Source: an uncultured delta proteobacterium
GTDB lineage: Bacteria; Desulfobacterota; Binatia; Binatales; Binataceae
Length of the DNA stretch: 64,000 nt
Direction of reading: 5' to 3'
Assembly: GCA_963815835.1 (NCBI GenBank)
Contig: CAWFIF010000001.1
Span: 1,571,479-1,635,478 of the forward strand
Position 1 is the first letter of the stretch, and every line of letters starts with the position of its first letter. Below, piece after piece: positions 19,805 through 64,000 of this stretch. Made by a program: the position numbers and the translations under genes. The notes below the pieces were generated by a model. It made no database searches. It worked only from the letters and a program-made list of their open reading frames with translations, and had not been told where the DNA came from.

Positions 19805-21973
19805 ATGATTGTGAAGTCCAGTCATCTCGCAGCAGTTGCAATCGGTTTGACGATCGGGGGGTTCAGCTTTTTGCATTACAGCGCCCATGCCGAGGCTCAG
19901 GAGTCTCCCGCCGCGGCTGCCGCGACGCCATCGGCTCCCGCGCAAGTTGATTCTGCCCGGCTGGTCAGCGCCGACAAGGAACCCGGCAATTGGATGACCT
20001 ACGGCCGGACCTACAGCGAGCAGCGCTTCAGTCCGCTCAACAAAATCAACGCCGACAACGTCAAGAACCTCGGGCTGGCGTGGTACTACGATCTCGATAC
20101 TGACCGCGGGCAGGAGGCGACGCCCATCGTGGTCGACGGTGTGATGTACATCTCGACTGCGTGGAGCATGGTGAAGGCCTTCGATGCCAAGACCGGCAAG
20201 CTACTATGGGACTTCGATCCCAAGGTAGGCCGCGAAATCCTGATCCATGTCTGCTGCGATGCGGTCAATCGCGGCGTCGCGGTGTGGAAAGGTAAAGTCT
20301 ACGTCGGCACTATCGATGGACGATTGATCGCGCTCGATGCAGCTACCGGCAAGCCGGTGTGGAGCGTTCAAACAACCGACAGGACCAAGCCTTACACCAT
20401 CACCTCAGCGCCGCGCGTGTTCAACGACAAAGTCGTAATCGGCAACAGCGGCTCCGAGTATGGTGTGCGTGGATATATGTCGGCCTACGAGACCGCGACC
20501 GGCAAGCTGCTATGGCGCACCTATACTGTCCCCGGCGATCCTTCCAAGAGATTTGAGAGCCCGGCGATGGAGAAGGCTGCCAAGACCTGGACCGGGAAAT
20601 GGTGGGAGGAGGGCGGCGGCGCCACCGCCTGGGGCGGCATCTCCTACGACCCGGACCTCGACCTGATGTACTTCGGTACCGCTAACGGTGTCGAATGGGA
20701 TCAGAAGCATCGCAGCCCTGGCGGCGGTGACAATCTGTACGTCGCCTCGATCATCGCGTTGAAGGGTTCGACCGGTGAGTACGCGTGGTACTACCAGGTC
20801 GTTCCCGGCGATGTGTGGGATTACGACGCGACCCAGGACGTGGTCCTCGCCGATCTGACTATCGACGGCAAGCTGCGCAAAGTGGCGATGCAAGCGGGCA
20901 AGGACGGCTACTTCTACGTGCTCGATCGCAAGACCGGTGAACTGATCTCGGCGAACAATTTCGTGCCGGTCAACTGGGCGAAAGGTATCGACCTGAAGAC
21001 CGGGCGCCCCATCGAGATTACGGCGGCACGCTACGACAAGACCGGCAAAACCTTCCAGATCACGCCGGCCCCAAGCGGCGGTCACAATTGGCAGCCGATG
21101 GCGTTCAATCCGCAAACCGGATTGGTCTATATCCCGGCGCAAGAGGAAGGTTTCCCGTTCGCAACGGACAAGAATTTCAAACCCACCACCGTCGGAAATA
21201 ACCTCGCCATCGATCTCGCAGCCGTGACCGTGGCGGAGCCCGCGGCAAGAAAGAAGGCGATGAAAGGTGAGAAAGGCTTTCTCCTCGCATGGGATCCGAT
21301 CCATCAGAAGGAGGTCTGGAGATACCAGTACATGGGTCCATGGGACAGCGGCATCATGACGACCGCCGGCAATCTGGTATTTCAGGGCAACGCGACCCAC
21401 GAATTCGCAGCCTATCGCGCGGACAACGGCCAGAAGCTATGGTCGGCGCCGACTCAGACCGCGGTCCTTGCGGGTGCGATGACTTATGAAGTTGACGGCG
21501 AGCAATACGTCGCGACGCTGGTGGGATGGGGCGGCAGCTATGCGATCCTCGGCGGGAGCCTTTCCACCATCTCGGGCCCGCAGCGCAACATCAGTAGACT
21601 GCTGGTCTACAAGTTGGGCGGCACCGCAACCTTACCGCCTCCGCCCGCTGAAGAAGTGAAGGTGCTCGATCCACCGAAACAGACCGCTAGCCCCGCGACC
21701 ATCACCGAGGGCAAGAAGCTGTATGGACGCAACTGCGTCATCTGTCATGGTGTCGATGTGATCAGCGGCGGACTCAATCCGGATCTGCGCTACAGCAAAC
21801 TCCTCGATGACGACGGATGGTACGACGTCGTGCTGGGCGGCAAGTTCAAGGATCAGGGGATGGTGTCCTTCGCCAAGAACATCAACAGACAACAAGCGAC
21901 GGCGATTCGCGCCTTCGTAATCCAGCGCGCGATCGATTCCAAGGCCGAGGAATCAAAGCAAGCGAAGAACTGA
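19805..21973 (+). CDS. PQQ-dependent alcohol dehydrogenase, quinohemoprotein type (PQQ beta-propeller + C-terminal cytochrome c)
   Basis: Signal peptide MIVKSSHLAAVAIGLTIGGFSFLHYSAHA. Vicinal-Cys motif ..IHVCCDAVNRGVAVW.. of quinoprotein ADHs, repeated W-containing propeller blades, and a C-terminal ..GKKLYGRNCVICHGV.. heme-c site. Confidence 0.85.
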   Translation: MIVKSSHLAAVAIGLTIGGFSFLHYSAHAEAQESPAAAAATPSAPAQVDSARLVSADKEPGNWMTYGRTYSEQRFSPLNKINADNVKNLGLAWYYDLDTDRGQEATPIVVDGVMYISTAWSMVKAFDAKTGKLLWDFDPKVGREILIHVCCDAVNRGVAVWKGKVYVGTIDGRLIALDAATGKPVWSVQTTDRTKPYTITSAPRVFNDKVVIGNSGSEYGVRGYMSAYETATGKLLWRTYTVPGDPSKRFESPAMEKAAKTWTGKWWEEGGGATAWGGISYDPDLDLMYFGTANGVEWDQKHRSPGGGDNLYVASIIALKGSTGEYAWYYQVVPGDVWDYDATQDVVLADLTIDGKLRKVAMQAGKDGYFYVLDRKTGELISANNFVPVNWAKGIDLKTGRPIEITAARYDKTGKTFQITPAPSGGHNWQPMAFNPQTGLVYIPAQEEGFPFATDKNFKPTTVGNNLAIDLAAVTVAEPAARKKAMKGEKGFLLAWDPIHQKEVWRYQYMGPWDSGIMTTAGNLVFQGNATHEFAAYRADNGQKLWSAPTQTAVLAGAMTYEVDGEQYVATLVGWGGSYAILGGSLSTISGPQRNISRLLVYKLGGTATLPPPPAEEVKVLDPPKQTASPATITEGKKLYGRNCVICHGVDVISGGLNPDLRYSKLLDDDGWYDVVLGGKFKDQGMVSFAKNINRQQATAIRAFVIQRAIDSKAEESKQAKN

Positions 21974-62536: not shown

Positions 62537-63079
62537 GTGAGAGAAATGTCACGGCTGAGCATTCCGGCCAATGAGCAACTCCCTTCGGAGATGCGCAAAC
62601 AAGTTGAATCGATCGATGCGACCGGTGCGGATTCGACGGTGCTGCGAGTGTTGGGCCATCGGCCCGACATGATCGAATCCTACTTTAAGTTCTACTACCC
62701 GCTGCACAACGGCGGCATCGTGGACCCCACGCTCAAGGAGTTGGTGCGGCTAAGGATCGCGTCGCTGAACCAATGCCTCACTTGAAAGAAAGCGCGATTT
62801 CCATCGGCGATGGAAAAAGGTCTGACTGAAGAGAAAATTTCGCGGCTGGAAAATTTCCGCGCCGACCCGGCGTTTAACGAGCGCGAGCGGATCGCGCTGG
62901 AGTTCGCGGAGAAAATGGCGACCAATCACACTTCGATCGACGACGATTTCTTTCGCAGGATGCGCGCGCATTTTTCCGACGCGGAGATCGTCGAAATTGG
63001 GATGGCGGCGGGGCAATATATCGGCTTCGGCCGCCTGTTGATGGTATTGGACCTGGAGCGTCCCGTCTGTAACATCTGA
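62537..63079 (+). CDS. AhpD-like / carboxymuconolactone-decarboxylase-family protein with in-frame TGA at the second Cys of the CxxC motif (candidate selenoprotein, CxxU)
   Basis: ORFs 62537..62785 and 62810..63079 share a frame. Read through, they give ..ELVRLRIASLNQC-L-T-[TGA]-KKARFPSAMEKGLTEEKISRLENFRADPAFNERERIALEFAE.., which aligns with AhpD-core ..LVRLRVSQINGCAYC..W.....F.ERERAAL... A hairpin follows the TGA. Confidence 0.55.
62798..62816 (+). promoter_or_regulatory. SECIS-like stem-loop 12 nt downstream of the in-frame UGA
   Basis: TTTCCATC-GGC-GATGGAAA is an 8-bp perfect stem with a G-rich apical loop. The position and size are compatible with bacterial SelB-binding elements. Confidence 0.4.
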
Positions 63080-63090
63080 GCGGTTTATTT

Positions 63091-63386
63091 AGGATAGAGG
63101 CCCGATGGGGGCGCACAGCGCCGCGACGAAGTCGCTCCCGAGGCGGAGCGAAGCGTAGTCGAGGGAAACGAGAGCCGTCAGTTGAAGTTTCAAAAAACGT
63201 AAAATCGAGGCCCGAAGGGGGCGCGGAGCGCCACGCCGCAGGCGTACCCGAGGCGGAGCGAAGCGGAGTCGAGGGAAACGAGAGCCGTCAGTTGAAGTTT
63301 CAAAAAACGTAAAATCGAGGCCCGAAGGGGGCGCGGAGCGCCACGCCGCAGGCGTACCCGAGGCGGAGCGAAGCGGAGTCGAGGGA
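63091..63386 (+). repeat. 110-nt tandem direct repeat (about 2.7 copies) forming paired hairpins, ending 10 nt before the TauE/SafE start codon
   Basis: Copies run 63091-63200, 63201-63310 and 63311-63386. The last two are identical. The first differs by compensatory changes that preserve two hairpins: GGCGC-ACA-GCGCC and GCGAC-GAA-GTCGC versus GGCGC-GGA-GCGCC and ACGCC-GCA-GGCGT. Confidence 0.7.
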
Positions 63387-63396
63387 TATATTAAGG

Positions 63397-64000
63397 ATGG
63401 GGGAAATCCTACTCGGACTATTCGCGCTGTCGGTCGGCTCCGGCTTCATCGGCGCGCTGTCGGGGCTGGGCGGCGGCGTCTTCATCGTGCCCGCGCTGGT
63501 GGTGCTCGCGAAAATGCCGATGAAGGTCGCGGTCGGCGCGAGCCTCATTTCGGTAGTTGCGACCAGCGCCGGCGCCAGCGTCGCATTCGTGCGCGATGGA
63601 TGGACCAACCTGAAGGTCGCGATGGTGCTCGAATGCGCGACCGTCACCGGCGCGCTCACCGGCGCATACCTCGCAGGGGTGATCCCCACGACCGTTCTCG
63701 AATTGCTTTTCGCGCTGATGATGCTGCAATCGGCATACTTCTCATTGGAAAAACAGGAAGACGATCTGATTGAAAGCGGCGATCCAATCGCCAAACGATT
63801 GCATCTCATGGGCGAGGTCCAGGACGAAACCGGAAAGCTGGTGCACTATGAAGTTATCAATTTTCCCAAGGGCGCGGCGCTGATGGTCGTCGCGGGCATC
63901 ATGTCGGGGTTGCTCGGAATCGGTTCCGGAGCGCTCAAGGTGATGGCGATGGATTACTTCATGCACCTGCCGCTGAAGGTTTCGAGCGCGACCAGCAATT
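63397..64000 (+). CDS. TSUP-family (TauE/SafE, DUF81) membrane transporter, 3'-truncated by window edge
   Basis: Not in the ORF track because there is no stop before the window end. ATG at 63397 gives MGEILLGLFALSVGSGFIGALSGLGGGVFIVPALVVLAK..GASLISVVATSAGASVAFVRDGW.., the TauE/SafE glycine-rich signature. Confidence 0.7.
   Translation, partial: MGEILLGLFALSVGSGFIGALSGLGGGVFIVPALVVLAKMPMKVAVGASLISVVATSAGASVAFVRDGWTNLKVAMVLECATVTGALTGAYLAGVIPTTVLELLFALMMLQSAYFSLEKQEDDLIESGDPIAKRLHLMGEVQDETGKLVHYEVINFPKGAALMVVAGIMSGLLGIGSGALKVMAMDYFMHLPLKVSSATSN

Follow-up and report, generated by a model that had tools for sequence, protein, structure and literature searches.

What is a tandem array of hairpin-forming units doing directly in front of a membrane protein gene? 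The question is raised by a locus near the downstream end of the window, the 64-kb stretch of Binataceae DNA that was analysed here, in which repeated units lead up to the start codon of a TauE/SafE (TSUP) gene. The original prediction took the array for a cis-regulatory leader, such as a tandem riboswitch or attenuator, on the grounds that paired substitutions preserve the hairpins of its diverged copy. An answer requires knowledge of how the array is built, where else its units occur, and how they are placed with respect to genes.

Tandem Repeats Finder places the array at positions 63097-63386, with a period of 110 nt, 2.6 copies and 94% matches, in agreement with the 110-nt repeat that had been claimed. 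Each 110-nt unit consists of a 69-nt GC-rich element (E) and a 41-nt AT-rich spacer (S), and the array in the window reads E-S-E-S-E. Sequence comparison likewise bears out that copies 2 and 3 are identical (100% identity across their common 70 nt) and that copy 1 has diverged in its 5' half: 10 of the 110 positions distinguish it from copy 2, every one of them within the first 60 nt. The array ends at 63386, and a gap of 10 nt separates it from the ATG at 63397-63399, just as predicted; the downstream ORF matches Pfam TauE (E=8.6e-35). The parts of the locus are as follows.

62546-63079, forward strand: CMD/AhpD-like gene, upstream of the array and co-oriented with it, with an in-frame TGA at 62783-62785
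63097-63165, forward strand: E1, element copy 1, 69 nt (covariance model R1, 96.9 bits)
Hairpins of E1, forward strand: H1 63101-03/63107-09; H2 63110-14/63118-22; H3 63123-27/63131-35; H4 63137-39...63163-65
63166-63206, forward strand: S1, AT-rich spacer of 41 nt, AAACGAGAGCCGTCAGTTGAAGTTTCAAAAAACGTAAAATC, absent from single-copy strains
63207-63275, forward strand: E2, element copy 2, the canonical form, identical to E3 (R1, 95.7 bits)
63276-63316, forward strand: S2, spacer, identical to S1
63317-63385, forward strand: E3, element copy 3, adjacent to the gene (R1, 97.0 bits)
63386-63396, forward strand: AT-rich tail ATATATTAAGG, from the element to the start codon
63397-64000, forward strand: TauE/SafE (TSUP) membrane protein gene, continuing beyond the window

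The stop codon of the CMD/AhpD-like gene lies 17 nt ahead of E1. Neither a sigma-70-like promoter nor a terminator was found in the spacer or the array, and the spacer S1 has no other occurrence in the window or in contigs L001-L007. Searches of the 64-kb window for further copies of E by repeat search, blastn-short, a 3-mismatch pattern and a covariance model found none.

The in-frame TGA of the CMD/AhpD-like gene lies in the context C-L-T-TGA (CxxU), reading the TGA as Cys lets the Pfam CMD match extend across it, and a hairpin, UUUCCAUCGGCGAUGGAAA, begins about 15 nt downstream of it. Judging by these features, the gene is probably a selenocysteine gene; public assemblies split it into ORFs of 79 and 89 aa.

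Is the unit peculiar to this locus? A 29-mer pattern from the 3' half of E, for which 0 matches are expected by chance, was matched exactly 36 times in the genome collection. These matches fall at 32 loci, with several to a genome, and all of the MAGs concerned are assigned to Candidatus Binataceae or bear the label 'uncultured delta proteobacterium'. Metagenome contigs were searched with a 20-mer pattern from the 5' half of E, which leaves the 3' half free. This second pattern matched at least 120 contigs or loci from soil, peat and permafrost, and about 95 of the 138 matches listed are true full elements. The original prediction had proposed a covariance-model search for more copies, and a model (R1) built from 37 copies indeed uncovers many further loci outside the window, with 65, 92 and 76 copies in three partly overlapping locus sets, diverged and composite copies included. 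Viral contigs gave 0 matches to E. The failure to recognise the unit as a known riboswitch class is likewise borne out: Rfam 15 yields no relevant match in the window at the gathering threshold and none in the repeat at E<=10, and no RNA family described there matches it. No description of E turned up in the literature either, in searches that covered repeats of Binatota, GNA triloops, the sequence itself and repeats in combination with Shine-Dalgarno (SD) sequences. The best-supported interpretation is that E represents a new family of interspersed structured repeats, lineage-specific to the Binataceae (phylum Binatota), and we conclude with high confidence that it is a dispersed repeat whose copy number varies.

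The element folds into four hairpins. H1 (consensus C-N-C GAA G-N-G), H2 (GGCGC GNA GCGCC, with a short form GGC GNA GCC) and H3 (RCGNC GCA GNCGY) are abutting mini-hairpins with C-GNA-G triloops, and H4 is longer, with the layout CCC / GA.GA / GGC:GUC / GGA.GGA / GC-GAA-GC. Two of the four had been overlooked, namely the 5' hairpin CCC-GAW-GGG and the long interrupted 3' hairpin that contains GAGGG. For the two that had been recognised, paired substitutions were claimed in both. One fits that description, with two exchanged pairs between GCGAC-GAA-GTCGC and ACGCC-GCA-GGCGT, whereas the other (GGCGC-ACA-GCGCC versus GGCGC-GGA-GCGCC) has changed in its loop only. The differences between E1 and E2 fall in the loops of H1 and H2, in these two compensatory pairs of H3, and in a G/T exchange in the internal loop of H4.

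That the hairpins are real, as originally proposed, is clear from strong covariation across an alignment of about 110 distinct copies from other loci. In the copies collected with the 3' pattern, 98.8% of cells are paired versus 32-46% after sliding the partners; in the 5'-pattern set (72 distinct copies), 98.7% of cells are paired in the four hairpins, and slid-partner controls over both copy sets range from 32 to 49%. The statistical test of covariation that had been suggested for the aligned units gives scores of 0.161 and 0.182 versus 0.045 and 0.067 for shuffles, and 0 of 500 shuffles attain the observed values. Compensatory changes occur at eight pairs in the 5'-pattern set, where all three outer pairs of H4 covary (CG 59 / UA 8 / GC 1 and CG 55 / GC 16 / UA 1, for example) and the inner pair is GU 64 / GC 6 / AU 1 / CG 1. 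In the 3'-pattern set, the middle pair of H1 is CG in 26 copies, GC in 5, AU in 4 and UG in 1, and H3 has three covarying pairs. The unpaired positions behave quite differently from the covarying stems: a C:G pair closes an invariant G-N-A in all four loops, and the purines of the internal loops hardly vary. The two compensatory pairs within the window, once read as the signature of a functional RNA structure, amount to the ordinary variation seen among copies of a dispersed repeat.

Folding calculations agree with the shape of this structure. For a single unit of sense RNA, the minimum-energy fold is exactly the four-hairpin structure, and E3 plus its tail also folds into the covariation structure; the antisense strand lacks H4. 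The folding energies of the array and of single units, on both strands, are no better than those of shuffled GC-rich sequence (z of -1.25 to +0.4), and the structure therefore rests on covariation and not on energy.

Where does E lie with respect to genes? Genes were called with our own codon-usage caller, which was trained on E loci and reproduces the public calls in the window, and tRNAs with ARAGORN. From 147 non-redundant copies, 26 internal array members and 13 that could not be assigned were set aside. Among the other 108, a co-oriented gene or tRNA starts within 40 nt downstream in 80, the co-oriented gene is farther off in 20, and the remaining 8 point towards a convergent gene, at its 3' end. 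Copies between co-directional genes are sense in 62 cases versus antisense in 2 (p=2e-16). A plain ORF test points the same way: 65% of the tests are positive in the sense direction, compared with 24% for random positions and 18% for antisense. On the upstream side, 93 copies have a co-oriented neighbour (no more than 30 nt away for 49 of them) and 22 a divergent one, and E is thus mostly intercistronic. At one locus (L015), two divergent neighbouring genes each have a copy of E in their own direction, which argues that orientation tracks transcription and not a particular replication strand. Measured from the last G of GAGGG, the start codon is most often 8-11 nt away. The orientation rule favours a transcription-linked constraint, even though it does not prove that E functions as RNA.

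The 3' end of the element resembles an SD sequence. Forty of the 45 elements located 5-12 nt before genes end in GAGGG or GAGGA, and 43 of these 45 genes have no other SD-like motif in the spacer (2 do). Where genes begin 14-38 nt after E, 26 of 30 have their own AAGGAG or GGAG, often within a shared tail, AAAATAAAGGAG; A/T-rich tails of the AAAWWWAAA type follow E at most loci. In the window, the GAGGG of E3 (63381-63385) lies 11 nt ahead of the ATG and is the sole well-placed SD candidate for the TauE gene. The TauE orthologue of a related species (L008) has a leader without E, in which a native AAGGA lies 8 nt before a TTG start; the counterpart of this AAGGA in the window abuts the ATG, and the GAGGG of E is found 11 nt upstream. 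We infer from this arrangement that E, in its short or its long-tail form, carries a ribosome-binding site with it; GAGGG would be used as the SD sequence, and transcription would run through E.

The GGG of this putative SD sequence pairs with CCC in H4, a hairpin with a predicted stability of -10.4 kcal/mol, and some damping of translation initiation is plausible on this model; a search for an alternative fold gave none. About one fifth of the copies have GAGCG, GAGCC or GAACG in place of GAGGG. The SD-like sequence is lost where the outer stem of H4 has switched to CGC/GCG, which suggests that pairing outranks the SD sequence. Moreover, copies of E in tRNA leaders cannot act in translation.

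If E served the TauE gene in particular, its copies should share a type of neighbour. The genes downstream of E instead belong to at least 10 unrelated Pfam families (EthD, glutaredoxin, luciferase-like monooxygenase, FAD synthetase, MerR, CsbD, cold-shock, Ku, AhpC/TSA and ThiC), and inspection by eye adds EF-G-like, enoyl-CoA hydratase-like, SDR and thiolase-like proteins. In a Thr-Tyr-Gly-Thr-rpmG-Trp tRNA cluster, the spacers that hold E differ by species, and E lies 7-25 nt before the mature tRNA. With at least 10 unrelated families and tRNA genes downstream, the proposed tie to TauE/TSUP or to sulfur metabolism cannot be upheld. What remains of the predicted cis-regulatory leader is its position: E does occupy the leader or intercistronic spacer of the TauE gene and is presumably transcribed, while gene specificity and a ligand-specific tandem riboswitch have found no support.

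Orthologous genes are often preceded by E in several species, and TauE orthologues at four other species-level loci also have it. Between species, E is about 91-96% identical (judged by eye), compared with 60-72% identity at the third-codon positions of TauE there. This conservation above codon sites would fit either selection on E or homogenisation among its copies. Beside E and before the EF-G-like gene, a tiny ORF, V-T-L-E-G-A-Y-[I/T/S]-stop, is repeated at two loci (L034:~990-1020 and L038:1760-1910); it might encode a leader peptide or represent the end of a gene in duplicate.

How stable is the array itself? The 89-aa ORF just upstream of the array was used to find the same locus in other strains, and seven contigs from independent metagenome assemblies with near-identical flanks were compared. 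The spacer between this ORF and TauE measures 95-96 nt in four contigs (0.64 unit, with one E and no S), 207 nt in one (E-S-E) and 317 nt in the window (E-S-E-S-E); contigs L004 and L007 end within the repeat. The copy states in these near-identical contigs are 0.64, 1.64, at least 1.64, and 2.64, all of them taken from metagenome assemblies, where repeats can collapse. Because near-identical strains carry 0.6, 1.6 or 2.6 copies, the array qualifies as a variable-number tandem repeat. In the single-copy allele, the 5' part of copy 1 is joined to the 3' part of the last copy, a chimera of the kind that recombination or slippage between copies would produce. The alleles also carry SNPs of their own (a GGA versus a GAA loop, the loss of one T, and TATATCAGG versus TATATTAAGG), and they are therefore not simply collapsed assemblies; one of the single-copy alleles is on an 85-kb contig.

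The TauE gene itself is a single 275-aa ORF in L002, L003 and L005; in L002, this protein matches Pfam TauE with E=3.7e-47 and is followed by DUF1634 and SDR genes. In the 85-kb contig (L001:10366-11192), TauE appears as two ORFs of 161 and 127 aa, which is a frameshift or an assembly error.

Another species (L021) has two copies of E upstream of its TauE orthologue, separated by a spacer that is recognisably like S. This similarity suggests that the E-S-E state is probably old, and that the identical third copy in the window is recent. A second variable array has three copies in L054 versus two in L145, and the other tandem arrays have periods or spacers of 79, 92, 95, 97, 117 and 123 nt, with the copies in direct repeat in all cases. 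The tandem arrangement is thus not a conserved design, given 0.6, 1.6 or 2.6 copies in near-identical strains and none in the TauE leader of L008.

Outside of arrays, too, the family shows signs of spread and decay. The presence or absence of E differs between orthologous spacers, and in composite copies other repeat modules are inserted at one point within H4, with the gene-proximal copy usually intact. The consensus of E contains no ATG, GTG or TTG, and copies of 68-75 nt and composites shift the frame. Terminal inverted repeats or a short target duplication were sought at E and not found, its ends GAGRCCCGAAGG... and ...GGAGTCGAGGGAAA not being inverted copies of each other. The 5' flank has only a weak YCGR-NN-GAG extension, with no information beyond -11 nt and no conserved promoter.

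One of the inserted modules (GCGAAGCCGATTCGGGCTGTCTGAGGGCCGAATCGAAAT...), itself a hairpin, has a constant insertion point between the 5' outer arm of H4 and GAGGCGGAG; it occurs at L028:5058-5330, L029:5037-5150 and L025:2825-2940, and in L043, L071, L075, L088, L101, L115, L122 and L125. Another module (CCTCACCCGGCGCAGTAGCGCCACCCTCTCCCTGAAGGGAGAGGG) lies inside elements at L021:2492-2633, L030:4289-4383 and L129, and stands alone between tRNA genes at L025:2200-2290 and in the spacers of L055. Its occurrence both within E and by itself indicates that Binataceae spacers are a mosaic of several repeat families. At four places (L008:4660-4850, L045:1215-1360, L055:3990-4270 and L054:1630-1990), the same 28-47 nt of host sequence stand in direct orientation on either side of E; the duplicated stretch is drawn, for example, from the CMD gene (its 3' end), from tRNA-Thr(ggt) (likewise its 3' end) or from the gene downstream (its first 11 codons). 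Duplications of 28-47 nt are too long for the usual target-site duplication.

What kind of element would show all of these properties? We consider it likely that E is a portable structured leader with a ribosome-binding site, and that the window contains a variable-number tandem array of it. On this reading, E would fold on the gene-sense strand into its four hairpins while sitting in transcribed spacers, typically beginning no more than 30 nt past the upstream stop codon and ending about 10 nt before the next start codon. The 3' arm GAGGG, or the AAAUAAAGGAG attached to it in the long-tail form, would replace the SD sequence of the gene, and E could precede any gene with little harm. Since the GGG of the SD sequence is paired in H4, E probably sets or dampens translation initiation. 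At the TauE locus, recombination or slippage between the near-identical copies of an old two-copy state with its spacer would have produced the 3-, 2- and 1-copy alleles. We hold the portable ribosome-binding mechanism with moderate confidence; we infer the recombination step, as we do any effect on expression, and a regulatory role for E would be speculative.

Other explanations have to be weighed against the same observations. Sensing of a sulfur compound, or of another ligand tied to a TauE/TSUP transporter, by a tandem riboswitch or attenuator would account for a covarying structured RNA directly upstream of the gene, for the pairing of the SD-like GAGGG in H4, and for the TauE orthologues that carry E at four other species-level loci. 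This earlier reading is now scarcely credible: E precedes at least 10 unrelated gene families and tRNAs, its copy number varies from 0.6 to 2.6 in near-identical strains, and the leader of the L008 orthologue does without it. Nor was a terminator/antiterminator alternative or an Rfam match found, and E lacks an unpaired pocket, save for its short purine internal loops. It is also very unlikely that the extra or missing copies arose by mis-assembly of short repeats. Two contigs do end within the repeat, which is typical assembler trouble, and all of the sources are metagenome assemblies. However, the four copy states were found in independent assemblies with allele-specific SNPs, and arrays with other spacers exist at many other loci, including some in long-contig MAGs; furthermore, the difference between copy 1 and copies 2 and 3 shows that the array is not a simple read-through loop.

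Two further readings have more in their favour and are still unlikely. E could be a genome-wide cis-regulatory RNA, a recognition site through which a single trans-acting factor would jointly control the translation or stability of the many mRNAs with E, copy number tuning the response; the factor might be a small RNA, an RNA-binding protein or a physical signal such as temperature. The near-invariance of the unpaired G-N-A loops and of GA/GA and GGA/GGA while the stems covary is what this explanation would lead one to expect, as are conservation far above that of synonymous sites, the sense orientation with its fixed distance to the start codon, and an SD sequence half-sequestered in H4; several stress-type genes (Csp, CsbD, glutaredoxin, peroxiredoxin, Ku and MerR) are found downstream. 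On the other hand, other downstream genes are of the housekeeping type (FAD synthetase, ThiC, EF-G-like and tRNAs), E may be present in one orthologous spacer and absent from another, some copies are composite or decaying, and no candidate factor emerged. The conservation could equally well reflect recent spread or gene conversion. A more ambitious version, in which E is a self-spreading mobile riboregulator with a ribosome-binding site, whose purine loops are read by one trans-acting factor or by temperature and whose copy number tunes strains, appears doubtful to the same degree; it would place a large, changing group of Binataceae genes under common post-transcriptional control.

We are similarly sceptical that E acts as single-stranded DNA, as a selfish element whose hairpins serve a transposase (REP-associated or IS200/IS605-type Y1) or are hot spots of replication slippage, any effect as RNA being incidental. 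GNA loops and the CGAG/CGAG and GGA/GGA motifs are the most stable single-stranded DNA mini-structures known, and E has C-GNA-G in all of its loops and both motifs in H4. The many near-identical copies, presence/absence polymorphism, nested modules, tandem arrays and 28-47-nt flank duplications would suit such an element, as would the skewed composition of the sense strand (G 44%, C 29%, A 21%, T 5%). Sporadic mismatches show no preference for G.U over A.C (7 versus 9), which leaves room for a role at the DNA level. The orientation bias would mean that only tolerated insertions remain, antisense copies giving a C-rich, Rho-loading RNA. Yet orientation tracks gene direction (the divergent pair at L015, and the ratio of 62:2) and not one replication strand, and E lacks a GTAG-type 5' tetranucleotide, inverted pairs and terminal inverted repeats. 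In addition, the conserved G.U pair of H4 would be A.C on the other strand, and H4 is unpredicted by DNA energy parameters, which ignore G.A motifs.

Several familiar classes of repeat were considered and rejected. A CRISPR array does not fit, as the spacers within an array are identical or near-identical and the arrays lie between ordinary genes. An integron attC site was dismissed because E forms four separate short hairpins with no single long palindrome and its copies lie by housekeeping genes and tRNAs, and a MITE because there are no terminal inverted repeats or short target-site duplication. A peptide-coding repeat is incompatible with a period of 110, which is not a multiple of 3, with the absence of start codons, and with indels that shift the frame.

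Among known interspersed repeats, REP, BOX and MIRU have functions that are mostly unsettled. REP/BIME/REPIN elements, which are linked to RAYT transposases, are single palindromes of 20-40 nt with a conserved 5' tetranucleotide, typically arranged in inverted pairs, at 3' gene ends and in both orientations. E resembles them in being a many-copy, extragenic repeat with stems kept by compensatory change, present within operons and likely to fold as a single strand; it differs in its four hairpins, its exclusively direct arrays, its almost invariable sense orientation and its place at 5' gene ends. The ERIC and Correia repeats have terminal inverted repeats and target duplications (a MITE architecture), both of which E lacks; E resembles them in its small size and presumed co-transcription with genes, and they can change mRNA stability or expression in an orientation-dependent manner. 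ROSE-type RNA thermometers and tandem riboswitches share with E a multi-hairpin 5' leader, a last hairpin that pairs the SD sequence, and tandem copies before one gene. They serve one gene function or ligand and are not repeated at many genomic sites, whereas E is found ahead of unrelated genes and of tRNAs and shows polymorphism in its tandem copies. The BOX element of Streptococcus pneumoniae is a modular intergenic repeat with modules in the order A-B-C, in both orientations and with a variable number of internal modules; it is transcribed with neighbouring genes, has a predicted stable RNA fold, and is often found near 5' gene ends. E is also modular and intergenic, varies in its tandem copies, lies near 5' gene ends and is predicted to fold, but it is a single four-hairpin unit in sense orientation at a fixed distance from the start, with optional modules inside H4.

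By analogy, E comes closest in behaviour to MIRU and BOX, and closest of all to MIRU. MIRU is described as inserting at start codons, where a coupled ORF preserves downstream expression (PMC12548453). Like MIRU, E is a short intergenic unit oriented with its flanking genes, forms strain-variable tandem arrays and occurs at start codons. Unlike the small ORF of MIRU, which is coupled to the start at -4 nt, E has no start codon and offers an SD sequence 8-11 nt upstream instead. The length variants of E are not multiples of 3, its hairpins covary, the two share no sequence similarity, and they come from different phyla.

The rules that E follows are unusually clean (62 of 64 copies in sense, a spacing of 8-11 nt, its own SD sequence, four covarying hairpins and invariant purine loops), and they are found in a lineage of an uncultured phylum without genetics. 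If E does act as a portable leader that binds ribosomes, it shows how a repeat can settle in the most sensitive part of a gene and yet spare its expression, and the copies of E would be natural insulated variants of a ribosome-binding site, ready for testing. For annotation, E accounts for broken contigs and for intergenic lengths that vary among Binataceae assemblies, and it cautions against naming such repeats riboswitches on the strength of one locus.

Elsewhere in the window, at 20176-20515, three 34-nt matches occur with an exact spacing of 153 nt; these are probably the coding sequence of a repeat-domain protein.
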